In this document: piece after piece, positions 1,393-63,238 of the stretch
Layout: every line of letters begins with the position of its first letter
Numbering within the stretch: position 1 is the first letter of the stretch
From: Proteobacteria bacterium UBA6156
GTDB taxonomy: Bacteria; Pseudomonadota; Alphaproteobacteria; UBA2136; UBA6156
Assembly (NCBI GenBank): GCA_002422365.1
Contig: DIUO01000010.1
Coordinates: 2,739 to 66,738 of the forward strand
Direction: 5' to 3'
DNA length: 64,000 bases
Program-made: the position numbers and the translations under genes
The notes under the pieces: generated by a model
Told to the model about the DNA's origin: nothing
Databases searched by the model: none
Seen by the model: only the letters and a program-made list of their open reading frames with translations

Positions 1393-2577
1393 ATGGCTGC
1401 CCCTACCATAACCCCTACCGCCCCCACCATCCTCATCCTTGCCGGAGAACCCTCCGGAGACCGCCTCGGCGGCGCCCTCATGGCCGCCATTCGGGCTCAG
1501 CAGCCGCAAACCCGCTTCATCGGCGTGGGCGGAGACAGCATGACCGCCCAAGGCCTCGCCCCTGTCTTCCCGATGTCCGACCTCTCCGTCATGGGCCTGT
1601 TCGAGGTCATCCCTGCCATCCCCCGCGCGCTGCGCCACCTCAAAACCCTTGCCCAGCTTGCCCAAACCGCCAAACCCGACCTCATAATTACCATCGATAG
1701 CCAAGACTTCGCCATCCGCCTCGCCACCCGCACCCACCATTTGGGCATCCCCCATGTGCATTATGTCGCCCCCAAAGTGTGGGCCTGGCGGCAGGGCAGG
1801 GCGGCCAAGCTCGGCCAAGCCTACAGCCATTTATTAACCATTCTCCCCTTCGAGAAAGCCTTTTTCCAAAAATTTGGCCTGAAAAGCACCTACGTCGGCC
1901 ACCCCGCCGTCACCACACTGGCGCCGCACATCCAGCCGCAGCCGCAAATCCCATCTCCCGCACCCGTTTTGGCGCTGTTGCCTGGCTCCCGCAGCGGAGA
2001 ACTCAAGCGCCACTGGCCCATCTTCCTGCAAACCTACCGCCAGCTCCGCCAAACCGCCCCCGGCCTTACCGCCGTGCTGGCCCTGCCGTCGGAAAAAGCT
2101 CTAAACACCTGCCGCACCCTGGCGGACTGGACCGACGCCGACGCCATAACCCCAGTTTACGGCGAAGCCCGCTTCACTCACTTGGCCACCGCCACCGCCG
2201 CCCTCACCAAATCCGGCACGAACAATCTGGAGCTCGCACTCCTCGGCATCCCCGCTTTAGTCACCTACCGCATGAACGCACTCACCTTCCAAATCGCCAA
2301 GCGCCTGGTCAAAGTGCCGTTTATCAGCCTGCCCAACCTCATCCTCCACTACGCCGGGCGGCCTGTTGTGTACCCAGAGCTTATCCAGCACGCCGTCACC
2401 CCCTCAGCATTGCAACAAGCCCTCACGCCACTGCTCACCGCCAGCCCCGCCCGCAGCGCGCAGCTCAAGGCGCTCTCCAGCCTCGGCAGCCTTATGCACA
2501 CCCCCCAACCCCCCGCCACACTCGCTGCCCAAGCCGCCCTGGCCTGCCTCAAACCCAACCCTAACCCCAAACCCTAA
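1393..2577 (+). CDS. lpxB: lipid-A-disaccharide synthase LpxB
   Basis: In-frame ATG at 1393, 5 nt after the lpxI stop. ILILAGEPSGDRLGG N-terminus and full-length LpxB-like sequence. The track ORF start at 1168 overlaps lpxI and is unlikely. Confidence 0.9.
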   Translation: MAAPTITPTAPTILILAGEPSGDRLGGALMAAIRAQQPQTRFIGVGGDSMTAQGLAPVFPMSDLSVMGLFEVIPAIPRALRHLKTLAQLAQTAKPDLIITIDSQDFAIRLATRTHHLGIPHVHYVAPKVWAWRQGRAAKLGQAYSHLLTILPFEKAFFQKFGLKSTYVGHPAVTTLAPHIQPQPQIPSPAPVLALLPGSRSGELKRHWPIFLQTYRQLRQTAPGLTAVLALPSEKALNTCRTLADWTDADAITPVYGEARFTHLATATAALTKSGTNNLELALLGIPALVTYRMNALTFQIAKRLVKVPFISLPNLILHYAGRPVVYPELIQHAVTPSALQQALTPLLTASPARSAQLKALSSLGSLMHTPQPPATLAAQAALACLKPNPNPKP

Positions 2578-2664
2578 AGCCGAACGCCCAAAACCCTACC
2601 TTTTCCGCCTTGCCAATCAATTTGGCATACAGTATGCATATATCCTCGCAGAAGGAGACATGCC

Positions 2665-3309
2665 ATGAAGCCCCACACCACCACCAAGCGCTGGCCCGCC
2701 GCCCACGGCACCCCCACGTTCAGCTTTGTGCCCGCCCCCACCGAGCTCACGCAGCTGCGCACCAACATCACCACATTAGAAGACCGCCTCTCCCGCCAGG
2801 CCGCCATCATCGAGAACCTGACCGAGAAAGCCAACCACGACAGCCTCACCGGCCTGCTCAACCGCCGGGGTATGGAATCCGCACTCACCCACGCCCTGGC
2901 GGCCTATCACCGCCACGGCCACATGGGCGCGCTCATGATGTTCGACCTCAACGGCTTCAAACAGATCAACGACACCTTCGGCCACGCTGCCGGAGACACC
3001 CTGCTGGCCCACGTTGCCGCCGCGCTGCGGGCTTCCACCCGCCAAACCGACCACCTCTGCCGCCTGGGCGGAGACGAATTCATGGTGTTTCTCTCCGGCG
3101 CGGGCCTCAGCCAGGCGCTTGTCATGGCGCGCCGCCTGCGCCGTGCGTTGCAGGCCAGCCCGGTTAATTACGAGGGCTCCAGCCTCATCGCCCACATCAG
3201 CGTCGGCATCGCCACGTTAGAAGAAGCCCCCTCGCTTCCCGCGCTGATCGAGCTCGCCGACGCCCGCATGTACCGCCTCAAGCAAGCCCTCAAATCCCTC
3301 CAACGCTAA
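2665..3309 (+). CDS. diguanylate cyclase (GGDEF domain, canonical GGDEF)
   Basis: GAAGGAGA RBS at 2651-2658. LTGLLNRRG, FDLNGFKQINDTFGHAAGD and RLGGDEFMVFL motifs. Confidence 0.85.
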   Translation: MKPHTTTKRWPAAHGTPTFSFVPAPTELTQLRTNITTLEDRLSRQAAIIENLTEKANHDSLTGLLNRRGMESALTHALAAYHRHGHMGALMMFDLNGFKQINDTFGHAAGDTLLAHVAAALRASTRQTDHLCRLGGDEFMVFLSGAGLSQALVMARRLRRALQASPVNYEGSSLIAHISVGIATLEEAPSLPALIELADARMYRLKQALKSLQR

Positions 3310-3329
3310 GCAGGGCAGGGGGCATTTTC

Positions 3330-3415
3330 GCACGGTTTCCCGGGCGGCGGTGGGGTCAAATGTGGAACACATTTGGGGCCCCCACCCCGACCCGGGATCT
3401 CGAATATACAGGCAC
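3330..3415 (+). repeat. Family A hairpin element, copy A1
   Basis: GCACGGTTTCCCGGG...GGGGTCAAATGTGGAACACATTTGGGGCCCCC...CCCGGGATCTCGAATATACAGGCAC. Begins 21 nt after the stop of 2665-3309. Confidence 0.8.
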
Positions 3416-3507
3416 GAATAAATTCCAGATATAAGTGCACCAGGCACGTCTTTACCTTACGAGCCATAAACCTTGTCAATCGGCAAGTTTCAGCCAATAC
3501 TAAACTC

Positions 3508-4158
3508 ATGGCCAAACTCAAAGACTCCCTCCAGAACATGATGCGCCGCCGCGAAGCGGATATGGAATCCGGCCGCGAACCGGCATCCGACTACGACACT
3601 CTCCTGTCAGACTACCAAGAACTGCAACGCATGTTCGAAGACCAAGCCCAGCTCATCAACGCGCTGCAGAGAGACTCCGGCGCCGACCCCCTCACCAGCC
3701 TCGCCAACCACCGTACTCTGGGGGCCGAGCTCGAGCGCTCCCTCGCCACCGCCCGCCGCTATGGCCGCCGCCATGGCCTCATTCTGCTGCGGATAGTCGA
3801 CTTCACCAACCTCTCCAACCAGCTCGGAGAAGCCGCCACCGACGCCATCCTCCGCCACATGGCCAGCCTCATCCGCCAGAACATCCGCCCGACCGACATC
3901 GCCGCCCACCCCCACTTCGGAGAATTCGCGATTATCCTGAACGAGCTCCGCGCGGTCGAAAACGCCACCCAGCGGGCCGAAGAAATCTGCGCCATCGCCG
4001 CCAGCACCCCCTGCGTGGTCGGTGGGCGCAGCCTGCACTGCATGGTGGTGCACGGCCTCACGGTGTTCGGGCAAGACGACGAAGCGACAGACATACTGGC
4101 CCGCACCCGCAAAGCCCTGGCCGACGCCGCCCCCGCCGGCTCCGTCCTCTCTTCGTAA
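3508..4158 (+). CDS. GGDEF-domain protein with degenerate active site (HFGEF)
   Basis: In-frame ATG at 3508 lies downstream of repeat A1. Coiled-coil N-terminus, DPLTSLANHRTL, and HFGEFAIIL in place of GGDEF. Confidence 0.7.
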   Translation: MAKLKDSLQNMMRRREADMESGREPASDYDTLLSDYQELQRMFEDQAQLINALQRDSGADPLTSLANHRTLGAELERSLATARRYGRRHGLILLRIVDFTNLSNQLGEAATDAILRHMASLIRQNIRPTDIAAHPHFGEFAIILNELRAVENATQRAEEICAIAASTPCVVGGRSLHCMVVHGLTVFGQDDEATDILARTRKALADAAPAGSVLSS

Positions 4159-5680: not shown

Positions 5681-6841
5681 ATGTCACACCCTGCTTCGCT
5701 TGTTCCCGTCGCCGCCCTGCATCAGGGCGTCTTAACCGACTCCGACTTCCACCACCTCCACACCACCGGCGCGTTCACCAGCGCTACCCCGCTGGCGCAG
5801 GGCCAAATCCAGCCCGCCAGTGCCGACCTCCGCCTCGGCACCGTCGCCTACCGCATCCAGGCAGGCTTCCTCCCCGGCAAGGGCCGCAAGGTGAGCGACT
5901 GCCTGCCCAGCCTCACCATGACCGAGCTCGATCTCACCCAACCCCAACTGTTCGAGCGCGGCGCCGTCTACCTCGTCCCCCTGCAAGAAAGCCTGAACCT
6001 CCCCCCCCAAACCGAAGGCACCGCGAGCCCCAAAAGCAGCACGGGCAGGCTCGATATTTTCGTGCGCCTCATCACCGACCACGCCACGGTCTACGACACC
6101 ATCACCCCCGGCTACAGCGGCCCGCTGTTCCTGGAAATCTCGCCCTTAACCTTCCCCATCATCCTCCGCGCCGGAGACCGCCTCAACCAGCTCCGCCTCC
6201 GCCAGGGCGATGTCCGCGTCTCCGATGCCGACCTCACCGAACTCCACAAGCAAGTCCCACTCCTCCGCCAGCAAGGTGGCAGTAAGGAGGAGTTGATGAA
6301 CCAGGGCCTCTGGATAAGCATCGACCTGCACGGCGAACAGAAAAACAGCACGGGCCACAACCCGGTGGTGGGCTACCGCGCCAAACACCACACTCAACCG
6401 ATAGACCTCGCGCGCATCGGCAGCTACCCCTGGAGCCACTTCTGGGAACCCATCACCCGCACCAACTCCAAACCGCTTATTTTGTACCCAGAGGAATTCT
6501 ACATCTTCGCGTCATCCGAGGGCATCTGCGTCCCCCCCACCCACGCGGCCGAGCTTGTGGCGTACGACACCCGCGTCGGCGAAATCCGCGTCCACTACGC
6601 CGGCTTCTTCGACCCCGGCTTTGGCTATGTCGCCGCAGGCTCGCCAGACAACGGCACCACGGCGGTATTAGAAGTCCGCGCCCACGACGTCCCCTGTGTA
6701 TTAGAACACGGCCAGCCCATCGGCCGCTTCATCTACGAAAAACTCCTCCAGCCGCCCCAAACCACCTACGGCGCAGGCATCGGCTCCAACTACGCCGGGC
6801 AGGGGCTCAAACTTGCCAAACAGTTCCAAATGGATCAATAA
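5681..6841 (+). CDS. dcd: 2'-deoxycytidine 5'-triphosphate deaminase (long DCD form)
   Basis: 386 aa. ASADLRLG, GRLDIFVRLI and a C-terminal dUTPase-like half, typical of the long dCTP deaminase family common in alphaproteobacteria. Confidence 0.8.
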   Translation: MSHPASLVPVAALHQGVLTDSDFHHLHTTGAFTSATPLAQGQIQPASADLRLGTVAYRIQAGFLPGKGRKVSDCLPSLTMTELDLTQPQLFERGAVYLVPLQESLNLPPQTEGTASPKSSTGRLDIFVRLITDHATVYDTITPGYSGPLFLEISPLTFPIILRAGDRLNQLRLRQGDVRVSDADLTELHKQVPLLRQQGGSKEELMNQGLWISIDLHGEQKNSTGHNPVVGYRAKHHTQPIDLARIGSYPWSHFWEPITRTNSKPLILYPEEFYIFASSEGICVPPTHAAELVAYDTRVGEIRVHYAGFFDPGFGYVAAGSPDNGTTAVLEVRAHDVPCVLEHGQPIGRFIYEKLLQPPQTTYGAGIGSNYAGQGLKLAKQFQMDQ

Positions 6842-7583: not shown

Positions 7584-8753
7584 ATGACGTATCATATCCT
7601 CTACGAATCAACCCCCTGGCACACCCGCTGCGCCCTCTTCGACGACCACGCGCGCCTCCTCACTCTCCGCTACGACGAATGCACCCGCCGCCATATCGAA
7701 GGCGCACTTGTCTACGGCCGCGTCCGCCAGGTCGTCCCCAGCCTGGGCGCCGCATTTGTAAGTGTCGGCGACCTCAACGACGCGCTCCTCCCGTTCAACA
7801 CCCTGCCAGAAGGCACCAAACTGACCGAAGGGCAGGGGATAGTCGCCCGCATCACCCGTGGCGGGTTTTACGAGAAAGGCCCCCGGCTGGATGCCCGCAC
7901 GGCCATCAAACCACCCTCGGCCGATACCCCATGCCCCAGCATCATCTCCCCGCCGCCATCAGCCCTCACGCGGGCGCTGCACGACGCTGGCTCCAACCCC
8001 GTCACGGTCTGGATCCTCAACGGCGCCCACCGCGACGCCGTCACCCGCCACGTGCCGGAGCGTCAGGTCAAACAGCTCGACCTCGACGGCTCGCACGAAG
8101 GCCTGCCCTCCCTCACCGACCTTCTCGATGACCACCTCGACGCCATGGTCAGCCCCCGCCCCACCTTTCCCTTCAAAGGCAAGGGGATAGAAGGCAACCT
8201 CATCATCGAGCTCACCTCAGCCGTAGCCACCATCGATGTCAACGCCAGCCCCACCACCCATATGCAAAAGGCCGACGCCACCATGGCCGTCAACCTCCGC
8301 GCGGCAGAAGAAGTCGCCCGCCTCTGCCGCCTGCTCGACCTCGGCGGCAGCGTGATTGTCGACTTCATCACCCCCAAAAGCAAAAACCACCGGGGCATCG
8401 TGGCCGAGCATCTCGGCGCCACCTTCAATGTCACCGACGACCGCTTTGTCGAACTCCGCCCCATGTCGCGCCATGGGCTATTAGAGCTCACGCGCGAACG
8501 CTCCGGCCCCTCCCTCTCGCTGCTGCTGAAAACGCCGGAGTACATCGCAGGCCGCGTCGGCCTCACCCTCTGGCGCACTCCAGCAGGCGCCAACCCCGCC
8601 TTGCGGCAGCAAACCATCACCGCCCACCCGGATGTCATCTACGTCCTCCAAAAACACCTCAGCCAAAGCATCTGCCTGGCCGCACTGGGCCGCAGCGTGG
8701 CACTGGTGCCCAACGCCTCACTGCCCTATACTCATGTGCAAATCACTGGCTAA
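7584..8753 (+). CDS. Rne/Rng-family ribonuclease (RNase E/G-like, short form)
   Basis: 389 aa. S1-like N-terminus (GALVYGRVRQVVPSLGAAFVSVG), catalytic region ending IVDFI, and a position after maf. Confidence 0.7.
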   Translation: MTYHILYESTPWHTRCALFDDHARLLTLRYDECTRRHIEGALVYGRVRQVVPSLGAAFVSVGDLNDALLPFNTLPEGTKLTEGQGIVARITRGGFYEKGPRLDARTAIKPPSADTPCPSIISPPPSALTRALHDAGSNPVTVWILNGAHRDAVTRHVPERQVKQLDLDGSHEGLPSLTDLLDDHLDAMVSPRPTFPFKGKGIEGNLIIELTSAVATIDVNASPTTHMQKADATMAVNLRAAEEVARLCRLLDLGGSVIVDFITPKSKNHRGIVAEHLGATFNVTDDRFVELRPMSRHGLLELTRERSGPSLSLLLKTPEYIAGRVGLTLWRTPAGANPALRQQTITAHPDVIYVLQKHLSQSICLAALGRSVALVPNASLPYTHVQITG

Positions 8754-9769: not shown

Positions 9770-12199
9770 CTACCGTGGCGCCAACATCCCATCCCGCACC
9801 ACCGCAGGCTTAACACTGGCGGCCGAGACCGCAGCCTGCAACCCCACCACCGCAGGCTGATACCCCGGCTGTATCGCCAGCGCGCGGCGGAACATCCACA
9901 TCGCCTCCTCCGGCTGGCCCTGCAAATTACGCAGCGCCCCGCCCACACCCCAGGTGTAGTGGCTAAAATCGGCATTTTGTTTCAGGCGCTCAAACATAGT
10001 CTCGGCTTTGGCCAGATAATCTTCAAACGCCGCCCGGTTTCCCAGGCTGCGGTTTTGCTCGGCTTTTTGCAAGTATTGCCCGGCCAGGTTAATCATGTGG
10101 TTAGCGCCCCAGGGGTCGCCGTCCAGCGCCCATTCCAGCTTGGCAATGCGCGTGTCCAGCCGCATCGGCATCAGGCCGTTATAGTTGGCATAGGCCACCG
10201 CAATGTGCTCCTGTATCCGCTGGTCATAGGGGTAAATATCCCATGCTTTTTCCAGCACTTTAATCGTGGTGTCGTCGTTTATGCCACTGTAAATGCGTAT
10301 CATTCCCTGCTTCAGCAACACGTTGCTTTGCCTAAAAAGGTACGCATCCCACAGCGCCCACACGCCCGCCACCAGCACCAGCACCAACGCCCCGGCGTAT
10401 CCCGCACGGTTCAGTTTCAGTTTGTCCGGCAACCAACGCTTCAACGGCGCGGTGGCTTCCTGCGGGTAATAGCGCATATACAGCGCGGCAATAATCCCAA
10501 TCATCATCAGGCACGCCGCAGGCGCCGTGGGCAATTGCATCGGGAAGTCAAACAACGCATTAATGCAAATCGTCAGCACCCCAATGCCGGTCATCAGGCC
10601 CAGCAGCTGCACGTCGTCGGCGGCGTGGGTCTCTTTCTGGGCCGCACGCCAGCTCGCATAGGCTCCGGCCAGCAGGGCGGCCAGCAGCCCAAGCTGCACC
10701 GCCACCAGCACATAGTGCCACAGGCCCGGCAGCGCCAGCATGCCTTGGTATTCCAAAAACACCGTCAACCCGGTCATCATCGTCAGCAACCCGGCCCCAA
10801 TCAAATATCCGCCCATCGCACCGGCCCGGCGCCCGGCCATGCGCAGCGCCATGGCAATGCCTGTTATAAACAGCCCGGCATAAAGTATCCCGCCGGGTAG
10901 GCCCATTTCCGTAAACGCCTGCATCAGGTCGGTGTGGGTGCGCTGCGGCCGCGCCATCACGTTATAACTGTTGCTGGGTGTAACCACTATCTCATTGTAA
11001 TACGGCGGGTATATCGTATAAAAATTTCCAAGCCCCACGCCATTCAGCGGGTAATCCTTGGTAATCACCAAACTGTTCAGGTTATAGGCCAGCCGCCCGC
11101 CAATCTCATTCCAGCTGCTGTTCACCAACGCGCCCACCTGCTGGCCGGGCGTGCGGTCTACCGCATAGGTGCCCTGCAAAGGCGATGTATCCCCCCCCCA
11201 CCGCAGCAAACACACCACCGGCACCAGCAACCACACGCCGTGGCTCCAGTCCAGGTGGCGGGCAATGGCTTTGCGCCAGGCGGGCACCAGCACCAGCAGC
11301 GCGGCTAATGTTACCAGCCCGCAAAACAGCGCCACCCAGCTGGCGCGCGCGCGGCTATACACCAAAAACACACTGCCCAGCGTCAGCAACAGGCTGGCAA
11401 AGGCCTGCGCGGGCCAGCGCTTGGCGGTTATCAGCAAATACAATGCAATCGGCAGCATCATCGCCGTCCAGCTGCCGGCCAGGTTTTTGTTGGCAAAGGT
11501 GCTGCCGGGGGCGGCACTTTGTAAATAATAACTCGTCGCCAAGCCCACCAGCCCAAGCTGGCGCTCGCCCCAGCCCATCCATCCGGCAATCGTTCCGGCC
11601 ACACCATCCAGCACCCACATCAGCGGCTTCAGGGCAAAAAACAGCCAGCTGCTGTCCATCATGGCCGCAAAACTGGAATCATTCATGCCCTTAAACTGCC
11701 AAATACCCACCAAACTGGTGCCCAGCAGCGGTATAACTAGCGCCCACAGCAGCTTGCGGCCAAATTCAGGCGTCATAATGTTATACACCACCACCATCAA
11801 TATCATCTGGGCATACAGGGCCTTAATCAGAATAATCCCCCGGCTCGGGTTCAGCGCATCCAGCATGCTAATCGCGGCCCAAATCGCGAGTCCCAGCGCA
11901 AACCACATCACGGGCGGCCAGCGCAACGGCAGGTGGGCAGGGGGGCGGGCTACGGCTTGCACCAGCAACAGCGTGGCACACAGCATGGCAAAGGCGCTGG
12001 TGGCCATCCACCGAATATCCCCGCTCACCTCCGGCACACCCAAATCAAAATAAAACGGCAACGTGGCGGCAAAAAACAGCACAATCGCGCGCACGGCACG
12101 GGTCAGCAGGGGGGCACCTTCGGCTTCAGCCGTGGTGGGTTGGGTGGGGGCAGCGGGGGCGGTGGCCCGGCGGGTGGCTTTTTGGCGAGCAGTGGTCAT
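9770..12199 (-). CDS. O-antigen ligase (Wzy_C)-like polytopic membrane protein with C-terminal TPR domain
   Basis: About 810 aa from the ATG at 12199. Many TM segments, then a TPR-like C-terminus (AYANYNGL..., AEQNRSLGNRAAFEDYLAKAE, ALAIQPGYQPA). Confidence 0.7.
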   Translation of the reverse strand: MTTARQKATRRATAPAAPTQPTTAEAEGAPLLTRAVRAIVLFFAATLPFYFDLGVPEVSGDIRWMATSAFAMLCATLLLVQAVARPPAHLPLRWPPVMWFALGLAIWAAISMLDALNPSRGIILIKALYAQMILMVVVYNIMTPEFGRKLLWALVIPLLGTSLVGIWQFKGMNDSSFAAMMDSSWLFFALKPLMWVLDGVAGTIAGWMGWGERQLGLVGLATSYYLQSAAPGSTFANKNLAGSWTAMMLPIALYLLITAKRWPAQAFASLLLTLGSVFLVYSRARASWVALFCGLVTLAALLVLVPAWRKAIARHLDWSHGVWLLVPVVCLLRWGGDTSPLQGTYAVDRTPGQQVGALVNSSWNEIGGRLAYNLNSLVITKDYPLNGVGLGNFYTIYPPYYNEIVVTPSNSYNVMARPQRTHTDLMQAFTEMGLPGGILYAGLFITGIAMALRMAGRRAGAMGGYLIGAGLLTMMTGLTVFLEYQGMLALPGLWHYVLVAVQLGLLAALLAGAYASWRAAQKETHAADDVQLLGLMTGIGVLTICINALFDFPMQLPTAPAACLMMIGIIAALYMRYYPQEATAPLKRWLPDKLKLNRAGYAGALVLVLVAGVWALWDAYLFRQSNVLLKQGMIRIYSGINDDTTIKVLEKAWDIYPYDQRIQEHIAVAYANYNGLMPMRLDTRIAKLEWALDGDPWGANHMINLAGQYLQKAEQNRSLGNRAAFEDYLAKAETMFERLKQNADFSHYTWGVGGALRNLQGQPEEAMWMFRRALAIQPGYQPAVVGLQAAVSAASVKPAVVRDGMLAPR

Positions 12200-14694: not shown

Positions 14695-15378
14695 CCGCCC
14701 CATCCCCAGCACAGCCCCAGGCCCGCGCTCCTGCACAATCACCAGCGTTTGGGTGCCTTTGGGGCGCATGGGCTTGGGCAGGCGGGCGGTGTTGCCCTTA
14801 ATTTCAGCCTCCACCAACCCGGTGGTGCGCCACACCTTGGTGTCATCCACCGGGTCCAGGCCCATCACCCACACCACGGCATCGCGGCCGCGCAGGGCAG
14901 GGGGTATGTCGACCGTCAAGGCCCCGTCAGCGCCCACCTGCGGCGCCAGCACGTGCTTGGCGGGCAGGGCGCGGCCTTGCTCCAGCGCACTGCCCCAGCT
15001 GAACATCAGCGGCGGGTTCACCAAAATCTGCCCGTCTATCAGCGGCATAGGCGTAAACACCTGCCCGGCGCGCTTGCCTAATGTGTTGGAGTAATCATAT
15101 TGCCGCTGCGTCACCTCCGCCAACCCATGCGGGTCGCGCTGGGTGGGGCTGCGGTCCCAATAATCCACATGTTCAAACACCACCAGCAGGTCGGGGTTGG
15201 CGGCGGCCACACCTTTCATTTTGGCTTCGGCCATGGGGCAGCTGGGGCAGTATTTGCTGGTGAACATCTCCACCAGCACCGGCGGCCGGGCAGGGGTAGC
15301 AGGCGTGGCTGGCTCGGCCGCATAGCCCTGTGCCGCCACCAGCATACTCCAACTTAAAATCGCCACACGCCAACGCAT
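14689..15378 (-). CDS. DUF1223 thioredoxin-fold secreted protein
   Basis: Signal peptide, then VLVEMFTSKYCPSCPMAE (CxxC) and HVDYWD. Typical DUF1223 pattern. Confidence 0.7.
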   Translation of the reverse strand: MRWRVAILSWSMLVAAQGYAAEPATPATPARPPVLVEMFTSKYCPSCPMAEAKMKGVAAANPDLLVVFEHVDYWDRSPTQRDPHGLAEVTQRQYDYSNTLGKRAGQVFTPMPLIDGQILVNPPLMFSWGSALEQGRALPAKHVLAPQVGADGALTVDIPPALRGRDAVVWVMGLDPVDDTKVWRTTGLVEAEIKGNTARLPKPMRPKGTQTLVIVQERGPGAVLGMGRI

Positions 15379-15382: not shown

Positions 15383-16390
15383 TTACCCTTTCGGTTTCGG
15401 TGTTACCTTACCAGCCTTTGCAACGGGTGCGCCAGCCTTGCTGCCTTTTCGTTCACGTTTTAACCGTTGAGCCTCGCTGGCCGGGGCTTTGGCGGGTTTT
15501 TTGTCTTGGTAGGCCATACGGATGTCCTCCTCCCGCAACGCATCCATCACATCCAGCAGCAGGGTGCTGCGCAGCACTTTGCGGTCTTCGGTGCGCACCC
15601 ATGCTTCCAGGGTGCACATCACGCCGTGTTCGGTCAGGGTGTCCACGGCCAGGTGGGGCTCGGGGGTTTTCAGCACCAGCGGGTTGGCCACCATGGCGCG
15701 CTTAATAATGCCAAAGGCGCGCCAAATATCCACTTCGTGCCCCAAGCCAAATTCCACTTTCACCATGCGCATGCGGTTATAGGTGTGGTTGCGCAGGTTG
15801 TTTTCCCACAGCAAGCCATTGGGTATAAAAACGCGTATAAATTCAATGGTATTTACTTCTGTCGAAAACAACCCAATCCGCTTCACCGTCCCGCTCACCG
15901 TGGTGTTTTCCACCCAGTCGCCCACTTTCAGGGGCCGGTGCACCATCAGCATCAGCCCTCCGGCAATGTTTCCCAGCGTGCCGCGCAGGGCAAAGGCCAC
16001 GGCCAAACCCAGCGCACCCACCAGGGCGGCCAGAGTGGTGCTGCCAATGCCAAACAGAGACAACGCCAGCATAAAAATAGTAAAAAACAGCACAAACCGC
16101 GCGGTGCTGGCCAAAAAGGCCGCCAACGTCTCTTCCACATGGGCCTTTACCAGCACGGTGTTCAGGCGGGTGGCCAGCCAGCCGCAGGCCAACCAGCCCA
16201 CCACAATCAGGGCCAGCCCGGCCAGCACGCTCACCATCACTATCGGCAGTTGGTCAATCAGCTTCACGGCGGCCTGGTCTATCACTTGCAGGTCTTTGTT
16301 GGCCTGCAAATTGGCTTGCAGGTTAGATATCGCAGGTATGTTCAGTTTCAGGTTTTCCAGCAAACCGGGGGCAGGGGCGGGGGTGGCCAT
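15383..16390 (-). CDS. MscS-family mechanosensitive ion channel
   Basis: TM3-like GLAVAFALRGTLGNIAGGLMLMVHRPLKVGDWV motif followed by a beta-domain. Its stop is 4 nt from the start of the downstream DUF1223 gene. Confidence 0.85.
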   Translation of the reverse strand: MATPAPAPGLLENLKLNIPAISNLQANLQANKDLQVIDQAAVKLIDQLPIVMVSVLAGLALIVVGWLACGWLATRLNTVLVKAHVEETLAAFLASTARFVLFFTIFMLALSLFGIGSTTLAALVGALGLAVAFALRGTLGNIAGGLMLMVHRPLKVGDWVENTTVSGTVKRIGLFSTEVNTIEFIRVFIPNGLLWENNLRNHTYNRMRMVKVEFGLGHEVDIWRAFGIIKRAMVANPLVLKTPEPHLAVDTLTEHGVMCTLEAWVRTEDRKVLRSTLLLDVMDALREEDIRMAYQDKKPAKAPASEAQRLKRERKGSKAGAPVAKAGKVTPKPKG

Positions 16391-23809: not shown

Positions 23810-24562
23810 ATGACCGAAACCACCTGGACCCTCCCCACACCCGACGGCAAAACCATCTACGGCGTCACCAACAGCAGCGGGGCAGGGGCCACAGCCGCCA
23901 TCTTCATGGTGCACGGCTTCACCGGCAACATGTATCAATATCCTTTTAAGCGTGCTGCCGATTTCCTCAGCGCAAAGGGTTACGATGTTTATCGGTTCAA
24001 TCTGTACGATGGGCGAAAGGGAGGCCGCAACCTGATTGACTGCACGTTACTGACTCACGCTGAAGATTTGAATACGATTATGGCAAAATTTGGTCCGGGC
24101 TATACCCAAAACTTTGTAATTGGCCACAGCTATGGCGGCCCCACTATCATGTTGGCTAACCCCCAAAACATCACAGCGGCTAGTCTTTGGGATCCTTCCT
24201 ATAACATCACGCAAATGAATAAGGATTTACCCGACTCTATCACCAAGATAGGCGGCCATCTCATTCTAAATGTGGGCATATCCTATGTGCTCAGTTCATC
24301 TATGGAAGAACATGCCGGAACCCTCGACGAACCCGCCTGCATTAAACTAGCCGAAGCCTTCAACGCCCCCGTCCAAGTCGTGCTGGCCGGAGACGGCTAC
24401 TACGTCAAGCAATCACACAGCTACCACTCCCACGGCAAGCCCGAAAACCTCGCCAAAAACCGCCAAGACGTCGTCCCCGGCACCACCCATTGCTTCCACG
24501 AAGCCGACACCTGCGAAGTGCTCCTCGCCAAAACCCACGCCTTCTTCCAGCAATTCCTCTAA
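23810..24562 (+). CDS. alpha/beta-fold hydrolase
   Basis: Nucleophile elbow GHSYGG, an upstream HGFTGN, and a C-terminal HCFHE. The middle of the gene is AT-rich. Confidence 0.75.
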   Translation: MTETTWTLPTPDGKTIYGVTNSSGAGATAAIFMVHGFTGNMYQYPFKRAADFLSAKGYDVYRFNLYDGRKGGRNLIDCTLLTHAEDLNTIMAKFGPGYTQNFVIGHSYGGPTIMLANPQNITAASLWDPSYNITQMNKDLPDSITKIGGHLILNVGISYVLSSSMEEHAGTLDEPACIKLAEAFNAPVQVVLAGDGYYVKQSHSYHSHGKPENLAKNRQDVVPGTTHCFHEADTCEVLLAKTHAFFQQFL

Positions 24563-24603: not shown

Positions 24604-24687
24604 TTGCCACACCCGCAGGCACCATAACGCGCAAAACAGGGCAGGGGGGCTGCCAAAAGCCCCCATTTGGTTTAAGAATTCTCCATC

Positions 24688-41428: not shown

Positions 41429-41435
41429 GCAATCC

Positions 41436-42905
41436 ATGACCTCCCTCGACCTCCTCCTCACCACCCCGCTGCTCGTTCTCGGCGGCGGCAGCCTGTTGCT
41501 CCTCATGCTGGGGGCCTTCACCCAGTCGGCGCGCGCCACCGCCATCGGCGCGGCGGTGGTCATTCTGGCGGCCATGGCACAGCTGGTCATCGCGCCCGCC
41601 AGCGGCCCGGTGTTTCCGCTAGAATCCGGGGCAGGGGCCTCTCAAGTCAGCAACTTGGCCGGCCACCTCATGCACGTCTCGCCCTTCACCAACATCGCCA
41701 CTCTCATCCTCCTCGGCATCAGTCTTCTCTGCATGCCTCTTGTCGGGCCCTATTTCCGGGCCGCCAAGGCCCACCGGCCCGAGGTTTACGTCCTCCTCAC
41801 ATTGTCGCTGACAGGCATGGTCGCCCTCATCACCTCCGCCCACCTCCTCACGCTTTATGTGGCGCTCGAGCTCATGACCTTCCCCCTCTACATCCTCGCC
41901 GCCTTTTTAAGGGACGACGCGAAAAGCTCCGAATCCGGCCTCAAATACTACGTCCTCGGCAGCATGGCCTCGGGGCTGATGCTCTACGGCATCTCGCTCC
42001 TCTACGCGGGCCTCGGCACCCTCAGCTACACGGGCGTGTTCACCGCACTCAACACGGCCGTGGCAAGCGGCGGGGTCACGCCCATTCTGCTGGTGGGCAT
42101 GGTGCTGGTGCTCACTGCCGCACTCTTCAAGCTCTCAGTGGCCCCGTTCCATATGTGGACACCCGACGTCTACGAAGGCGCCCCCACCCCAGTCACCGCC
42201 ATCATGGGCAGCCTACCCAAAATCGCCGCCGTGGCGCTGCTCATCCGCCTGCTGGCAGGGCCTTTCGATGCCCTCGCCTCCCTCTGGCAACCCACCCTGG
42301 CCTGGCTGGCCGTGGCCTCCATGCTGGTGGGCGCGGTGCTGGCCATTGCGCAAACCAACCTTAAGCGCTTGCTCGCCTATTCCACCATCGCCAACATCGG
42401 CTTCATTCTGGTGGGGGTGGTGGCGGCCAACCCGCAGGGGGCTTCGGGCGCCATGCTTTACCTCGCCATCTATGCCTTTACCACCCTGGGCCTCTTTGCC
42501 GCGCTTATGGCCAGCGGCGCCAACAATGTGTCCGACCTCAAAGGCCTCGCCACCCGCAACCCCTACCTCGCGGGCACCTTTTTGCTGTTGTTGTTCAGCC
42601 TCGCGGGCATCCCCCCGCTGGCGGGCTTCATGGCCAAGTTTGCAGTGTTCACTGCCGCCGTGCAGGCCGGGCTCATGCCGCTGGCCATTGCGGGCGTGCT
42701 CTCCAGCGTGCTCGCGCTGTTCTACAGCCTCTGGCTCATCAAGGTGATGATCTTCGACCACCCCGAAACCCTCACCCCCACCCCCGCCATCCCCCTAAGC
42801 CTGGCCTACATTATGCTCCTCAGCGCCATGGCCACCCTCATCCTCGGCATCTTCCCCAGCCTGCTCGGCAACCTCACCCTCGCCGCCGCCACCGCCATTT
42901 TCTAG
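41436..42905 (+). CDS. nuoN: NADH-quinone oxidoreductase subunit N
   Basis: LFKLSVAPFHMWTPDVYEGAPTPVTA, KRLLAYSTIANIGF. Confidence 0.95.
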   Translation: MTSLDLLLTTPLLVLGGGSLLLLMLGAFTQSARATAIGAAVVILAAMAQLVIAPASGPVFPLESGAGASQVSNLAGHLMHVSPFTNIATLILLGISLLCMPLVGPYFRAAKAHRPEVYVLLTLSLTGMVALITSAHLLTLYVALELMTFPLYILAAFLRDDAKSSESGLKYYVLGSMASGLMLYGISLLYAGLGTLSYTGVFTALNTAVASGGVTPILLVGMVLVLTAALFKLSVAPFHMWTPDVYEGAPTPVTAIMGSLPKIAAVALLIRLLAGPFDALASLWQPTLAWLAVASMLVGAVLAIAQTNLKRLLAYSTIANIGFILVGVVAANPQGASGAMLYLAIYAFTTLGLFAALMASGANNVSDLKGLATRNPYLAGTFLLLLFSLAGIPPLAGFMAKFAVFTAAVQAGLMPLAIAGVLSSVLALFYSLWLIKVMIFDHPETLTPTPAIPLSLAYIMLLSAMATLILGIFPSLLGNLTLAAATAIF

Positions 42906-42993
42906 GCACCCTTTACCAGTCCATAAGGGCAGGGGCCCTTGCCATGCACATATAACATGCGTATACATGGCGTACTTCCCGTCCCTTTAACAC

Positions 42994-43419: not shown

Positions 43420-44157
43420 ATGGTATATAGAAATATGCTCCTCCACCTCCCCACCACCACCTCCACCATGGATGTCGCCCGCGCCGCCGTGCAGCAAGGC
43501 GACACCACCAGCATTGTGCTGGCCGATGAGCAAACCTCCGGCCGTGGCCGCCTTAACCGCCCCTGGCTCACATTCCCGGCCCCCTACGGCATGGCCGCCA
43601 CCTTTATTGTCCCCGGCGGGCCCTATCCACACTTGCCCCTCATCGCCGCCCTGGCCCTCCACCAAGCAGTCCTCGGCCTTCAACCCGAAACCCAGAACCC
43701 GACACCCGAAATCCTCATCAAATGGCCAAACGACCTCCTGCTAAGCGGCAAAAAAGCCGCAGGTATCCTGTGCGAAACCATATCCAGCGGGGCAGGGGCC
43801 CCCGCCGCGCTGGTGGGCATCGGCTGCAATATAGCAGCGCCTGCCTATGTGCCAGAGTCCTTCCAGGGCACCTTCCTCGGCCTCTCTACCACGCCAGAGG
43901 CCCTGGCCCGCGCAATTAGCACTTGCATGCAGGCCTTGCTTACCCTATATCAACAGCAAGGTTGGAGCGATACGCTACACAACAGCTACCTCCAAAGCTG
44001 CGCCACACTGGGCCAAAACCTAACCTGGCAGCGCGGCACACCACAACAGCTTACCGGCTACGCCCGTAGCCTTACCAAAGACGGGCACCTCGAACTGGTG
44101 GCAGAAGACGGCACGGTGCACGTCATCCACAGCGGAGAAATCTTCGACACGCGGTAG
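43420..44157 (+). CDS. birA: biotin-[acetyl-CoA-carboxylase] ligase (group I, no HTH)
   Basis: TSGRGRLNRPW and KWPNDLLLSGKKAAGILCE motifs. The start may instead be 43435. Confidence 0.85.
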   Translation: MVYRNMLLHLPTTTSTMDVARAAVQQGDTTSIVLADEQTSGRGRLNRPWLTFPAPYGMAATFIVPGGPYPHLPLIAALALHQAVLGLQPETQNPTPEILIKWPNDLLLSGKKAAGILCETISSGAGAPAALVGIGCNIAAPAYVPESFQGTFLGLSTTPEALARAISTCMQALLTLYQQQGWSDTLHNSYLQSCATLGQNLTWQRGTPQQLTGYARSLTKDGHLELVAEDGTVHVIHSGEIFDTR

Positions 44158-49020: not shown

Positions 49021-49167
49021 TGTTCCTCGGCTTTCGCCGCTCCCTAAAAGAGAAAAATTGTACAAGCCGAACGGCTTCAACACATAAGTATACTAAAAAC
49101 TCTTACCGTCAAACAAAAAGTAGCCGCCCCAAAAAGGGCGGCTCATCGTCAGGGCAGGGGGGTGGTG

Positions 49168-50001: not shown

Positions 50002-50133
50002 CTACTCACTCTGGGCCAGCAGCTCCGCCGGGGGCAGGGCCACAAACGGGCTTCCCGGAAGCGCCTTCCAGAAAACCCAGCCCGGCCACACCAGCACAGC
50101 CACCAAAAATAAAACAGTCATGAAAGATTTCAT
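50002..50133 (-). CDS. small hydrophobic peptide (43 aa)
   Basis: Hand translation gives MKSFMTVLFLVAVLVWPGWVFWKALPGSPFVALPPAELLAQSE. AGAGGAG RBS 7 nt upstream and an intrinsic terminator 14 nt downstream. Confidence 0.5.
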   Translation of the reverse strand: MKSFMTVLFLVAVLVWPGWVFWKALPGSPFVALPPAELLAQSE

Positions 50134-51200: not shown

Positions 51201-51440
51201 CCCTTTGCAAACCCTCCAACTTCTCCTGCCATCCGTAAGGGCATCGTAACGTGTATTTTCACCCGTTTCGCTTAAGTATCTGTAAGCGCATGCCTAGCTC
51301 CTGTAACATAAAAACCATGCACAGCGTCCCATTCGCCACGGGCGCTTTTCAGGCAGGCTGTTTTCGGCTACTGTGGGCTTTAACAGGGCAGGGGTGCCGC
51401 ATCGGCGGCATGCCTTGCAAATCAAGGAGAATACACAACC

Positions 51441-55051: not shown

Positions 55052-55681
55052 ATGAACAGCGTCAACACCCCCGCCACCCAACCCGCCACCTTGCCCGTGG
55101 CCGAAAAAGCGCTCCTGCGCAGCATGTTCCGCCACCGCAGCCGGGTGATACCTGCCGACCTCGCCGCCACCACCAGCTTCAAAGCCGCCAACCTGGTGCG
55201 CACCGTGCTGGCCGGGCTGGGGCAGGGGGTCATCGCGCTCTATATTCCCCGTCGCGGAGAAGTCGACCTCACCCACCTCGCCGAAGACCTCTGGCAGGCA
55301 GGCCAAACCGTCTGCCTGCCGCGCGTGGTGCTGCGCGGCCACCCGCTGGTGTTTAATATATGGGAACCCCAAACCCGGCTGGAGCCCGACGCCCTCGGCC
55401 TGAAAGCCGCCACCGGAGACGAAATCACCCCTACCGTCATCGTCATGCCCATGGCGGGCTACAACCGGCAGGGCTACCGCCTGGGCAGCGGCGGCGGCTA
55501 TTACGACCACACCCTAGCCACCCTGCGCCAGCCCGTCACCACCATCGGCGTCAGCTATACCGAGCTTGAAATCCCCAGCTTCCCCGCTGAACCCCACGAC
55601 CACACGCTCTCCTACATCATCACGGGCAAAGAGGTCATCATCCCCACCCTCCTGGCCCCCGAAATCGTCCACACCATCTAA
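55052..55681 (+). CDS. 5-formyltetrahydrofolate cyclo-ligase
   Basis: AAGGGGG RBS. KALLRSMFRHR, and GYRLGSGGGYYD near the C-terminus. Confidence 0.85.
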   Translation: MNSVNTPATQPATLPVAEKALLRSMFRHRSRVIPADLAATTSFKAANLVRTVLAGLGQGVIALYIPRRGEVDLTHLAEDLWQAGQTVCLPRVVLRGHPLVFNIWEPQTRLEPDALGLKAATGDEITPTVIVMPMAGYNRQGYRLGSGGGYYDHTLATLRQPVTTIGVSYTELEIPSFPAEPHDHTLSYIITGKEVIIPTLLAPEIVHTI

Positions 55682-56176: not shown

Positions 56177-56221
56177 CCCCGTTCCTTGACAACCCATGGG
56201 GGGAGGCGACACACTCCCCCC

Positions 56222-57841
56222 ATGGCCGCCCCCCAAACACCCCGAAACGCACCTCTTCTCCAGGTTACCAACCTCACCGTAGCCACGGCCACCACGCCGC
56301 TGGTTCAGGGCGTCAGCTTTACCCTGAATAAGGGCGAAACGCTGGCGGTGGTCGGAGAATCCGGCAGCGGCAAAACCCTCACCGCCCTGGCCGTCATGGG
56401 GCTGCTGCCGCAGGGCCTCAGCATGCAGGCGCAGTCCCTCAGCTTCGCCGACAAAAACCTCCTCACCCTCACCACCCCCCAGCGCCGCGCTCTTCGTGGC
56501 AAACGCATGGCGATGATCTTCCAAGAACCCGCCACCGCCCTCAACCCCGTCCTCACATGCGGCTATCAGGTGGAAGAAGCCTTCCTCATTCACAGCCCCA
56601 AAATGACGAAAAAGCAGCGTAAAACCCGCGTCCTCAAACTCTTCGAGCAAGTCAAACTCCCCAACCCAGAAAGCATGTTCAGCGCCTATCCGCACCAAAT
56701 CTCCGGCGGCCAGCGCCAACGCGTGATGATCGCCATGGCCCTGGCCCACGGGCCAGAACTTCTGGTGGCCGACGAACCCACCACCGCACTCGATGTGACG
56801 GTGCAAGCCGAAATCATCAAATTGGTCAAAAGCCTGCAAAAAGAGCTCGGCATGGCCATGCTCTGGATAACCCACGACTTCGGCGTGGTGAAGCAACTGG
56901 CCGACACCACCATCGTCATGCAACAGGGCAAAATTGTCGAGGAAGGGCCCACCACCCAAATCCTCTCCAAGCCCAAACACGCCTACACCAAGCAACTCCT
57001 CGCCGCCACCCTCCAACTTAACCACCAACCTGTCTCACCTAAAACACCAAACTCCAAACCAGAAACACTCCTGCAAGCCACCAACCTCTCCCACACCTAC
57101 GCCGCCCGCAGCAGCTGGTTCAGCCGCACGCAGGGCACTCCCGCCCTCCAAAACGTCTCCTTCACCCTCAATGCCGGAGAAACCTTGGGCGTGGTCGGAG
57201 AATCCGGCAGCGGCAAATCCACTCTCGCCCGCGTCCTCACCCGCCTGAACGAAAGCAAGCACCCGCAAGGCAGCATCGTGTTTCTGGGTCAAAACGTATT
57301 GCACCTCAAAGGCGAAGCCCTCCGCCAAACCCGCAAAAATATGCAGATGGTCTTCCAAGACCCCGTCACTTCGCTCAACCCGCGCCTGCCCATCGGCCAG
57401 AGCATTTTAGAAGGGGTCGAGGCCCACAACACCCTGCCCAAAGCCCAACGCGCCGCCTATGTCGCCAAATTGCTGAAAGAAGTCGGCCTACCGTCCGACG
57501 CCGCCACCCGCCTGCCGCACCAGTTTTCCGGCGGCCAGCGCCAGCGCATCGCCATTGCCCGCGCCCTGGCCCTGCAACCCAAATTGGTGATTGCCGACGA
57601 ACCCGTCTCCGCGCTCGATGTCTCTGTCCAGTCCCAAATCCTCAAGCTGTTCCAAAGCATCCAAAAGGAGTACGCCACCGCCTTCGTCTTCATCAGCCAC
57701 GACCTCCGCGTCATCTCGCACCTCGCCCACAACGTGCTGGTCATGCACAACGGAGAAGTGGTCGAACAAGGCCCCACCACCCAAATCTTCAACACCCCCA
57801 AGCACCCCTACACCCAAAAACTCCTCAAAGCCGTCATCTAA
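56222..57841 (+). CDS. fused double ABC ATP-binding protein (oligopeptide/YejF-like)
   Basis: Two cassettes: Walker A GESGSGKT and GESGSGKS, signatures ISGGQRQR and [11 protein letters not shown] at 56222. Confidence 0.9.
57041..57069 (+). repeat. Family D-like CA-rich tract in the inter-cassette linker (D9)
   Basis: AAAACACCAAACTCCAAACCAGAAACACT, read in frame within [11 protein letters not shown]. Confidence 0.4.
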
Positions 57842-57846: not shown

Positions 57847-57879
57847 AAAAAAAGCGGGCAGGGGCCGAAGCCCCTACCC
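57847..57879 (-). terminator. Rho-independent terminator (minus strand)
   Basis: The minus strand reads GGGTAGGGGC-TTCG-GCCCCTGCCC, then GCTTTTTTT. Confidence 0.55.
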
Positions 57880-62007: not shown

Positions 62008-62059
62008 TAAAAACAAACTCAACATTGAAAACAGACCACTGAACACGGAAACACTGAAC
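62008..62059 (+). repeat. Family D-like CA-rich tract (D11)
   Basis: TAAAAACAAACTCAACATTGAAAACAGACCACTGAACACGGAAACACTGAAC runs right up to the ATG at 62060. Confidence 0.5.
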
Positions 62060-62794
62060 ATGAACCCCACCGCCTCCATCCTCATCATCGGCAACGAAAT
62101 CCTCTCCGGCCGCACCGTCGACACCAACATCAACCACATCGCCCGCCGCCTGACCGACCTCGGCATCACCCTGACAGAAGTCCGCATCGTGCGCGACCGC
62201 GAAGCCGAAATCATCGCCGCCACCAACGCCCTGCGCAGCACTTACAGCTATGTGTTCACCACCGGCGGCATCGGCCCCACACACGACGACATCACCATCC
62301 CCAGCATCGCCAAAGCCTTTGGCGTGGCGGTGGAGCGTAACCTGCAGGTAGAGAGCAAACTACGCGAGTACTACGCCGCCCGCGCCACCGCCGCCAGTAT
62401 GCGGATGGCCGACTTCCCCGCAGGCGCCCGCGTGGTGTGGCACGGAGAACACTTCGCACCCGGCTGTATCATGGAGAACGTCATCATCCTCGCAGGCCAA
62501 CCGCGGAATATGCAAGTAATGCTCGAAGCCGCGCTCCCCATGCTCCAGCAAGGCCAGCCCATGCACAGCAGGCAAATAGATGCCTGGGTGTTCGAAAGCC
62601 AAATCGCCGAAGGCCTGGAATCCGTCCAGAACCGCTTCCCGGAGGTCGACATCGGCAGCTACCCCTACCGCATAGAAGGCCGCGCCGGCACCGCCCTGGT
62701 GGCCCGCGGAGCCGACGCCACCAAGGTCGAAGCCGCCTTCGCCGCCATCACCGCGCTCCTGGAAGACCAAGGAGCCGACATCCGCGCCGCGTAA
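62060..62794 (+). CDS. CinA-like molybdopterin-binding (MoCF_biosynth) domain protein
   Basis: ILIIGNEILSGRTVDTNINHIARRL, FTTGGIGPTHDDIT. Confidence 0.8.
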   Translation: MNPTASILIIGNEILSGRTVDTNINHIARRLTDLGITLTEVRIVRDREAEIIAATNALRSTYSYVFTTGGIGPTHDDITIPSIAKAFGVAVERNLQVESKLREYYAARATAASMRMADFPAGARVVWHGEHFAPGCIMENVIILAGQPRNMQVMLEAALPMLQQGQPMHSRQIDAWVFESQIAEGLESVQNRFPEVDIGSYPYRIEGRAGTALVARGADATKVEAAFAAITALLEDQGADIRAA

Positions 62795-62799
62795 GTAAA

Positions 62800-63096
62800 A
62801 TGGATTATCATTATATCGTCTATTTGCTTGCCAGCGGCCCGTGCGGCTACCTCTATGTGGGTATTACCGATAACATTCTACGCCGTATGCACGAACATCA
62901 AACCTTCGCGAATCCCCATTGCCATACAGCTCGCTATAATATTGTAAACTTGGTGTATTACGAAGTTTTCTCCAACGTAATGGAAGCCATAAAGCGAAAA
63001 AAACATCTCAAAAAATGGCGCCGTAACTGGAAGTTTAATCTGGTTGAAAAAACCAACCCAACCTGGCAAGACCTTACCCCATCGCTGCAAATCTAG
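62800..63096 (+). CDS. GIY-YIG nuclease family protein (small)
   Basis: ATG at 62800. YIVYLLAS...YLYVGITDNI, LVYYEVF, KRKKHLKKWRRNWKFNLVEKTNPTWQDL. AT-rich. Confidence 0.8.
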   Translation: MDYHYIVYLLASGPCGYLYVGITDNILRRMHEHQTFANPHCHTARYNIVNLVYYEVFSNVMEAIKRKKHLKKWRRNWKFNLVEKTNPTWQDLTPSLQI

Positions 63097-63117
63097 CCTC
63101 CTAACCCTTGGGCACCG

Positions 63118-63238
63118 GGGGGGCAGGGGGTCGCCAGACCCCCTGAAACAGCTTCGCTGTCATCCCGGAAGGTAGCAAAGCCAAAACGGGGTAGGGGCCC
63201 CCGTTTTGTGTCTTTGCTCCTGTCCGGGACAAGCCCTC
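63118..63238 (+). repeat. Family C element, copy C3 (first of a direct pair)
   Basis: GGGGGTCGCCAGACCCCC hairpin, then CATCCCGGAAGGTAGCAAAGCCAAAACGGGGTAGGGGCCCCCGTTTTGTGTCTTTGCTCCTGTCCGGGACAAGCCCTCT. Confidence 0.75.

Follow-up and report, generated by a model that had tools for sequence, protein, structure and literature searches.

A polar octamer, very probably the KOPS of an uncultured small-genome alphaproteobacterium, on a main chromosome of one-signed GC skew

The window analysed here is a stretch of 64 kb (contig C39, positions 2739-66738) of G000, the metagenome-assembled genome (MAG) of an uncultured small-genome alphaproteobacterium (1.27 Mb in 47 contigs, 87% complete, 59% GC, standard genetic code). 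It carries a complete-looking nuo (NADH dehydrogenase I) operon on the plus strand (24688-42905), and a tRNA scan and an Rfam scan of the whole 64 kb found nothing. Scattered along it is the octamer GGGCAGGG, of which an exact search gave 22 copies on the plus strand, co-oriented with the nuo operon, and a single one on the minus strand, at 57432. This word is the experimentally defined FtsK-orienting polar sequence (KOPS) of Escherichia coli, Vibrio cholerae and Pseudomonas aeruginosa (PMC3384302; PMC2533119; PMC2680272), acts as an architecture-imparting sequence in most Proteobacteria (PMC3384302) and was chosen as the KOPS of Azospirillum (bioRxiv 10.64898/2026.09.14.751567). Judging from its sequence and distribution, it very probably serves as KOPS and architecture-imparting sequence in this organism too. 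The predicted KOPS sites of the window are:

1794..1801, plus strand: GGGCAGGG(C), inside the plus-strand open reading frame (ORF) 1168-2577
3313..3320, plus strand: GGGCAGGGG, intergenic, directly past the ORF end at 3309
6797..6804, plus strand: GGGCAGGGG, in plus-strand gene 5681-6841
7830..7837, plus strand: GGGCAGGGG, in plus-strand gene 7584-8753
11935..11942, plus strand: GGGCAGGGG, antisense in minus-strand gene 9770-12268
14895..14902, plus strand: GGGCAGGGG, antisense in minus-strand gene 14689-15378
14962..14969, plus strand: GGGCAGGG(C), antisense in minus-strand gene 14689-15378
15288..15295, plus strand: GGGCAGGGG, antisense in minus-strand gene 14689-15378
16369..16376, plus strand: GGGCAGGGG, antisense in minus-strand gene 15383-16390
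23880..23887, plus strand: GGGCAGGGG, in plus-strand gene 23810-24562
24639..24646, plus strand: GGGCAGGGG, intergenic, 5' of the nuo operon, with a hairpin-like G/C stretch and a T run after it
27428..27435, plus strand: GGGCAGGGG, in plus-strand gene 26887-28203 (nuoF-like)
35967..35974, plus strand: GGGCAGGG(C), in plus-strand gene 35262-36026
41629..41636, plus strand: GGGCAGGGG, in plus-strand gene 41436-42905
42927..42934, plus strand: GGGCAGGGG, intergenic past 42905, within an imperfect palindrome
43790..43797, plus strand: GGGCAGGGG, in plus-strand gene 43420-44157
49152..49159, plus strand: GGGCAGGGG, intergenic or uncalled
50032..50039, plus strand: GGGCAGGG(C), intergenic
51386..51393, plus strand: GGGCAGGGG, intergenic or uncalled, 5' of gene 51441-51941
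55220..55227, plus strand: GGGCAGGGG, in plus-strand gene 55052-55681
57856..57863, plus strand: GGGCAGGGG, 5' arm of a terminator-like hairpin past gene 56186-57841
63121..63128, plus strand: GGGCAGGGG, intergenic, past the ORF end at 63096
57432..57439, minus strand: the sole reverse copy, on its own strand TGGGCAGGG(T), the 5'-T form

An earlier note on this DNA had counted the same 22 and 1 copies by eye, with two coordinates 10 too high (41639 for 41629 and 43800 for 43790); it had left room for a comparable number on the minus strand, which the exact recount did not find. The plus-strand sites fall in plus-strand genes (9), in minus-strand genes (5, at 11935, 14895, 14962, 15288 and 16369) and in intergenic or uncalled DNA (8). 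The earlier note had these same five antisense sites right and counted 50032 as a sixth; this site is intergenic, with no ORF of at least 60 amino acids over it on either strand. At 18 of the 22 sites the octamer is followed by a ninth G; beyond that, the flanks show no relation to one another. Within the window the polarity is confined to the variant with C at the fourth position, the remaining variants of the consensus GGGNAGGG being split 6:6.

The composition of the window runs the other way. GC skew of its plus strand is between -0.09 and -0.27 in all 4-kb bins, with AT skew mostly positive, and because this strand is so poor in G, strand-specific Markov models of orders 0-3 predict only 0.9-1.3 copies on it and 3.1-6.1 on the minus strand, in place of the roughly 3 per strand that had been guessed before. 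The plus strand thus holds a ca. 20-fold excess and the minus strand is depleted, so that the bias opposes composition and exceeds the earlier estimate. Dinucleotide shuffles gave 7.3 +/- 2.5 copies on both strands summed, at most 14, against the 23 observed. One could still suppose that the strand bias is a passive by-product of composition skew, or of the codon and amino-acid usage of genes that lie mostly on the plus strand. The compositional skew of the window is indeed extreme, the other top-skewed octamers are C-rich coding words such as CGCCGCCA, and about two thirds of the coding length lies on the leading strand. But the motif is G-rich and sits on the G-poor strand, where composition predicts the reverse (about 1 on plus, 3-6 on minus), and ca. 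20 plus-strand copies are predicted only by a Markov model of order 6, in which the model holds the motif itself.

To place the window on its chromosome we relied on relatives. Searches with NuoG matched only uncultured Alphaproteobacteria. The nearest match, G001 (identical to G005), is a MAG of the same genus as G000 that is mislabelled Blastochloris; it has 1.7 Mb in 10 contigs, one of them a scaffold of 1.02 Mb (VAFM01000001.1), and we used the three large ones, C1, C7 and C4; the two genomes are collinear with ca. 79% amino-acid identity, and contigs of G000 span the scaffold ends of G001, giving the circle C7(+), C4(+), C1(-). A quite different placement, as a Hodgkinia-like symbiont reading TGA as Trp, was considered at first because of the high GC, the strong skew and the many contigs; it was rejected, as translation table 11 gives long intact ORFs (for example the nuo operon) and table 4 only extra shadow ORFs.

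On this circle the polarity of the motif changes at two places. In G001 the octamer lies on the plus strand of C1 (1.02 Mb) over 1-285 kb and on the minus strand over 300-1024 kb, and on the minus strand of C7 up to ca. 560 kb. Between the two tracts of C1, at 295,254, there is a dif site, ACTTCGCATAATATATATTATGTTAAAT, of 28 bp with 4 mismatches to E. coli dif and the layout ACTTCGCATAA-TATATA-TTATGTTAAAT, i.e., two 11-bp arms around a 6-bp spacer; an identical site is found at G000:C7:147,318, and in both G000 and G001:C1 nothing else matches E. coli dif with 8 mismatches or fewer. Around it, contig C7 of G000 has 27 copies on the plus strand up to 143,758 and 6 on the minus strand from 147,427, with one stray minus-strand copy at 63,651. 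Polarity therefore converges on dif in both genomes.

The opposite switch, from minus to plus, occurs at G000:C18:34.9-39.1 kb, which corresponds to ca. 564 kb of G001:C7. This divergence point falls at about 38.7-39.4 kb of C18, in 740 bp of intergenic DNA with a BON/OsmY-like gene on one side and hemW-rdgB-rph on the other, in which several near-matches to the DnaA box were read by eye, unscored; an Rfam scan of this origin-like region found nothing, and dnaA lies ca. 120 kb away. The arms measure ca. 826 and ca. 859 kb in G001, so the divergence point is diametrically opposite dif. Splitting the chromosome at these two places gives two replichores, R_A, which holds the window (and dnaA), and R_B, the other arm. 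By synteny, in G001 coordinates, the window lies about 125-185 kb upstream of dif. The unique dif and the opposite origin-like point, both with a switch in G000 and G001, bear out what the earlier note had proposed from the window, namely that this lineage uses a KOPS-like sequence, that dif lies to the right and that the plus strand is the leading, ori-to-dif strand, on which KOPS polarity and gene orientation agree.

The arrangement extends beyond the genus. Of 41 relatives, 19 have a single dif-like site in their genome, and in each of the 13 relatives sampled from the family, the order and the class GGGNAGGG converges on such a site. The 26-nt core pattern of dif matches more than 120 proteobacterial genomes; the degenerate pattern search of genome contigs returned mostly gamma- and betaproteobacteria and was used as a control set only, with GGGNAGGG counts around 23 control dif loci of 13:1 on one side and 1:16 on the other. 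A search for related loci with the 290-amino-acid protein adjacent to dif gave zero relatives.

Ranked by the smaller of its two arm z-scores, GGGCAGGG comes first among ca. 19,000 octamer pairs in G000 and ca. 26,000 in G001, and the runners-up are all overlapping shifts of it, which answers the earlier note's suggestion of a ranking against all other 8-mers. The leading to lagging counts on R_A and R_B are 171:20 and 86:14 in G000 and 130:10 and 97:7 in G001. R_A of G000 is the more telling arm, with a C-rich leading strand that holds 171 copies where 15-18 are expected, and a lagging strand that holds 20 against 30-50 expected. The 56 permutations of G6CA on this arm have medians of 7 leading and 26 lagging; all but the motif track composition. 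So do the one-mismatch variants (lagging more than leading), except at position 4, where GGG[AGT]AGGGG gives 41:9, so that tolerance at this position on R_A reproduces the consensus GGGNAGGG.

Coding accounts for the bias no better. Leading-strand copies on R_A of G000 are 63 sense, 66 antisense and 42 intergenic (25%), although antisense makes up only one third of the coding length, and the sense copies are spread over two reading frames (33 and 26). The bias is tied to the chromosome strand and not to coding, as the earlier note had held from the window. Similar numbers of antisense and sense copies, intergenic enrichment, two frames and unrelated flanks, added to the failure of composition, make a passive origin of the bias extremely improbable.

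Leading-strand GGGNAGGG totals 224 on R_A and 224 on R_B of G000, two arms of opposite composition, which suggests selection for a set motif load. The make-up of the two totals differs, R_A having mostly GGGCAGGG (171) and R_B leaning on the A and G variants (50 + 65), which its G-rich strand supplies; it looks like compensation that holds the load constant.

The base before the octamer is also informative. VGGGCAGGG is distributed 216:2 in G001, and the form with a 5' T, TGGGCAGGG, shows no polarity or an inverse one (5:13 on R_A of G000, 4:10 on R_A of G001). As the 5'-T form is non-polar, and all 10 wrong-strand copies on R_A of G001 as well as the minus-strand copy of the window carry this T, the sequences suggest that this base is read; the TGGGCAGGG copy of the window is presumably not read. 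Refined in this way, the motif reads V-GGGCAGGG and favours G in the ninth position; its specificity profile, base by base, is V-GGG-N-AGGG-(G).

It is in the flanks, too, that one may look for signs of a dispersed repeat, a terminator or a G-quadruplex element inserted in one orientation. The word is G-rich, and some intergenic copies sit in the 5' arms of G/C hairpins past genes (57856, 24639, 42927). Flank conservation is nil beyond positions -1 and +1, however, with no shared sequence longer than 10 bp seen; 14 of the 22 window copies lie inside ORFs on either strand, a lone GGG-N-GGG run is unable to form a quadruplex by itself, and the polarity tracks replichores genome-wide and not operons. 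We regard such an element as most improbable. The terminator-like hairpins themselves span 57856-57879, 24639-24670 and 42927-42945. In the first, the 3' arm (57872-57879) reads CCCTACCC and not CCCTGCCC, and this one mismatch keeps a reverse copy of the strict motif from arising.

Density increases toward dif as well. On R_A of G001, VGGGCAGGG occurs at 1.0 per 10 kb in the far half of the arm and at 2.2-2.5 in the dif-proximal 200 kb; the corresponding densities on R_B are 0.8 and 1.4. This bears on another reading, that the word is a Chi-like recombination hotspot for RecBCD or AddAB, co-oriented with replication, and not a guide for FtsK. Chi sites are likewise polar octamers over-represented on the leading strand (PMC3384302), and no separate word that could be Chi-like or report fork direction turned up in G000 or G001, the polar words of k = 5-8 being only KOPS-derived or purine-rich coding words. 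Against it, the sequence is the experimentally defined KOPS consensus down to the free position 4, its density climbs toward dif and its polarity converges 110 bp to 4 kb from that site, and the same word is an FtsK target in gammaproteobacteria (PMC3384302, PMC2533119). A Chi-like role appears improbable, if somewhat less so than the two alternatives above.

The machinery expected to read a KOPS is encoded. G000 has a single FtsK (828 amino acids, C30:15642-18128; PF09397 93 bits, PF01580 253 bits), whose gamma domain aligns with the solved gamma domains of E. coli and P. aeruginosa (PDB 2J5P/2VE8) with E about 1e-14. There is one full-length, XerC-like Xer recombinase (C40:434-1336; XerC 263 bits, XerD 207 bits, both under the equivalog cut-offs). 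G001 encodes the orthologue of this protein and, at C7:168 kb, a paralogue with 34% identity, the syntenic spot of which is an assembly gap in G000. The recognition helix of gamma (G000:C30:17946-18125) reads NRAADLID in place of NRAAR(I/L)IE (NRAARIIE in E. coli). The residues by which E. coli FtsK reads KOPS are N1296, R1300 and E1303, a numbering that we checked on the 2J5P alignment, and alanine at R1300/E1303 makes E. coli FtsK blind to KOPS. Asp at the R1300 position is found in the genus of G000 and in just one more of the 29 other alphaproteobacterial FtsK sampled.

If septal FtsK works here as it does in E. coli, V. cholerae and P. aeruginosa, its gamma winged-helix domains would load on the motif in one orientation and the translocase would pump DNA to dif, where XerC/XerD would resolve chromosome dimers; binding of the motif by this particular FtsK, and the effect on translocation, are expected from the same analogy. 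The motif would be kept on the plus strand of the window and purged from the minus strand because the plus strand is the leading, ori-to-dif strand. Several observations weigh against this account. The N1296 equivalent is conserved, while the equivalents of R1300 and E1303 are both Asp in G000, and Arg stands at the R1300 position in 23 of the 30 alphaproteobacterial FtsK tallied (29 others plus G000). Only one Xer was found in the 87%-complete G000. The replichore of its 47 contigs was assigned by synteny to one relative. And the GC-skew switch at dif that usually accompanies KOPS is missing. With regard to the helix, since the motif is polar despite the two Asp residues, it may be recognized via other contacts, and the altered helix may be related to the longer motif.

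Taken as a KOPS, the motif itself is ordinary and extends the known system to an uncultured alphaproteobacterial lineage. As in E. coli, V. cholerae and P. aeruginosa (GGGNAGGG, the strongest form being GGGCAGGG), it is an octamer with a free position 4, polar with the leading strand on both replichores, convergent on a XerCD dif, denser toward dif and accompanied by an FtsK gamma winged helix. In contrast to those species, the effective word is longer here (no T at -1, G favoured at +1), on one replichore it is the C-rich strand that carries the motif, and there is no switch of GC skew at dif; relative to E. coli, two of the three recognition-helix positions known from mutants are Asp. Azospirillum is likewise an alphaproteobacterium in which, in silico, the same variant was picked from GGGNAGGG and polarity changes within a few kb of the predicted dif, but there the KOPS turnover coincides with the turning points of cumulative GC skew, and here it does not. 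The SpoIIIE recognition sequence (SRS) of Bacillus subtilis (GAGAAGGG, read by SpoIIIE) is also a G-rich polar octamer guiding an FtsK-family translocase, with another primary word and another context, sporulation. Both GAGAAGGG and GAGCAGGG are polar in G001 (29:3/38:1 and 27:3/52:5); GAGCAGGG is probably not read in G000, because its count on R_A, 9:26, tracks composition.

The unusual part is the GC skew of this main chromosome, which is one-signed and uncoupled from KOPS. The earlier note had looked for agreement between motif skew and GC skew, and on this point the genome does not follow it: in the window the leading strand is rich in C and A, with a GC skew of about -0.2, and the skew flips neither at dif nor at the origin-like point. 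Leading-strand GC skew is +0.21 on R_B and -0.14 on R_A in G000, and +0.15 and -0.02 in G001; in other words, the same physical strand is C/A-rich on both replichores, with its sign constant through dif and the divergence point. Placed on the circle of G001, the blocks of G000 are all of one sign but for an integrated conjugative element (C7:91-130 kb) and an island of ca. 40 kb, and the contigs over dif (C7) and over the divergence point (C18) have zero sign changes. Skew on both sides of dif is +0.21 to +0.29 in G000:C7 and runs from +0.20 to +0.11 to +0.04 across it in G001. Coding length is co-oriented with the leading strand on both arms (67% and 63%).

The absence of a flip is shared by at least three genera of the family. 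Values on the two sides of dif are +0.2 / +0.16 in G002 (60 kb each side), about -0.09 / -0.09 in G010 and -0.18 / -0.21 in G007. G009, plus short windows of G012 and G016, has a normal flip at dif, and the 23 control proteobacterial loci have a mean of +0.037 / -0.041, a small flip and never a strong same sign. In G000, G001 and G002 dif does not lie at a GC-skew turning point.

The asymmetry is greatest at third codon positions (top-strand region component about -0.27 on R_A and +0.38 on R_B), with second positions shifted too, and is also present in genes of both orientations and in intergenic DNA, for which reason gene strand or transcription was rejected as its cause. Along the arm the asymmetry stays flat, and for this lack of a gradient a slow fork on one arm was rejected. 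Inversions or misassembly were discarded, since the presence of the motif on a G-rich or a C-rich strand is a local property that no inversion alters. A displaced ori or ter was rejected as well, no paired skew switches being found and C7 and C18 keeping their sign over dif and the divergence point. G000 and G001 differ by an amount that is itself uniform over both arms, and a simple description is a replication component r of about 0.03-0.07 plus a uniform component u of about 0.10-0.19, the latter being about 0.10 in G001 and about 0.19 in G000.

Candidate causes are mostly unidirectional fork movement on the main chromosome, rolling-circle copying or single-strand transfer of one strand, repeated single-strand exposure, and a strand-specific mutational or repair process. 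A tentative reading, which we consider possible though rather unlikely, is that in this family most forks cross the replichore of the window from dif to origin, i.e., that the chromosome is copied largely unidirectionally (by one-fork theta or rolling-circle/sigma replication), possibly tied to a type IV secretion system (T4SS), while the segregation architecture (KOPS, dif opposite the origin, gene orientation) is bipolar. Under a simple two-mode model, wrong-way passages would make up a share of ca. 0.6 in G001 and ca. 0.85 in G000. If this were true, KOPS polarity would be selected by segregation alone and be separable from the direction of replication. Two observations count against unidirectional forks: dif is opposite the divergence point and not adjacent to the origin, and the ribosomal-protein/rpoBC cluster and the nuo operon of R_A would be transcribed head-on. 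Both rRNA genes are on R_B.

With regard to transfer, contig C18 of G000 encodes a type IV coupling protein at 45.5-46.9 kb and, at ca. 51-91 kb, an F-like T4SS cluster with its genes all on one strand. The two begin on R_A, ca. 6 kb away from the divergence point. Within this region, 38 kb (48.9-87.2 kb) contain zero GGGCAGGG on both strands, compared to ca. 2.6 per 10 kb elsewhere on the arm. Given the F-like layout, it would be the G/T-rich strand that is transferred. No relaxase was recognised at the cluster and no skew gradient was seen, both of which count against rolling-circle copying and transfer alike. The TraC-like gene of the T4SS turned up in all 28 genomes searched within the order, whatever their skew pattern, and in none of the 12 searched outside it; its presence or absence is therefore uninformative on the cause of the skew.

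There are known replicons that resemble this chromosome in part. The chromids of Pseudoalteromonas are driven by RepA, plasmid-derived and unidirectional, as proved by read depth, with dif 4-27 kb from ori (PMC7858055). They share with G000 the combination of a large replicon and one-sign GC skew all round. In contrast, ours is the dnaA-bearing main chromosome, with dif opposite the divergence point and bipolar gene orientation. SkewDB lists ca. 250 chromosomes of "asymmetric skew", in which one replichore has at least 3-fold the GC skew of the other and which are hard to explain (PMC8941118). G001 (+0.15 vs -0.02) fits this category; the second replichore of G000 and of G002 is not flat, its skew being strongly inverted (-0.14 to -0.2), and KOPS and dif additionally mark the polarity of the replichores independently.

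A G-poor leading strand on one replichore amounts to a natural control that separates selection for KOPS from hitch-hiking with GC skew. It yields a ca. 10-fold enrichment over composition and a specificity resolved position by position, with the 5'-T form not counter-selected. Conversely, KOPS and dif provide a compass independent of skew, which exposes a one-sign strand asymmetry (GC skew at third codon positions, GC3 skew, of about 0.3) round a main chromosome, and the uncoupling of replication direction and segregation polarity in such a chromosome becomes testable here.

As for the exceptions to the one-signed skew, the integrated conjugative element (G000:C7:86.6-130 kb) is marked by an integrase, a fragment of a MobA-like relaxase and a TraC-like gene, and has a skew of about 0 between flanks of +0.2 and 7:0 copies of GGGCAGGG in the permissive orientation. 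The island of ca. 40 kb (G000:C41 plus C1:1-12 kb, equivalent to G001:C1:556-597 kb) is conserved in both genomes with a skew reversed or null relative to its arm. Part of it, at C1:1.6-5.0 kb, codes for a large terminase and a P22-like portal, the remainder being housekeeping genes (valS, argS, serS, era, relA/spoT), and its KOPS polarity is normal. Finally, a search by short conserved rRNA words only placed the 16S and 23S rRNA genes on R_B, the replichore of normal skew, co-oriented with KOPS and seemingly unlinked, ca. 60 kb apart over a scaffold junction (G001:C1:~4.5-6.0 kb and G001:C7:~57 kb).

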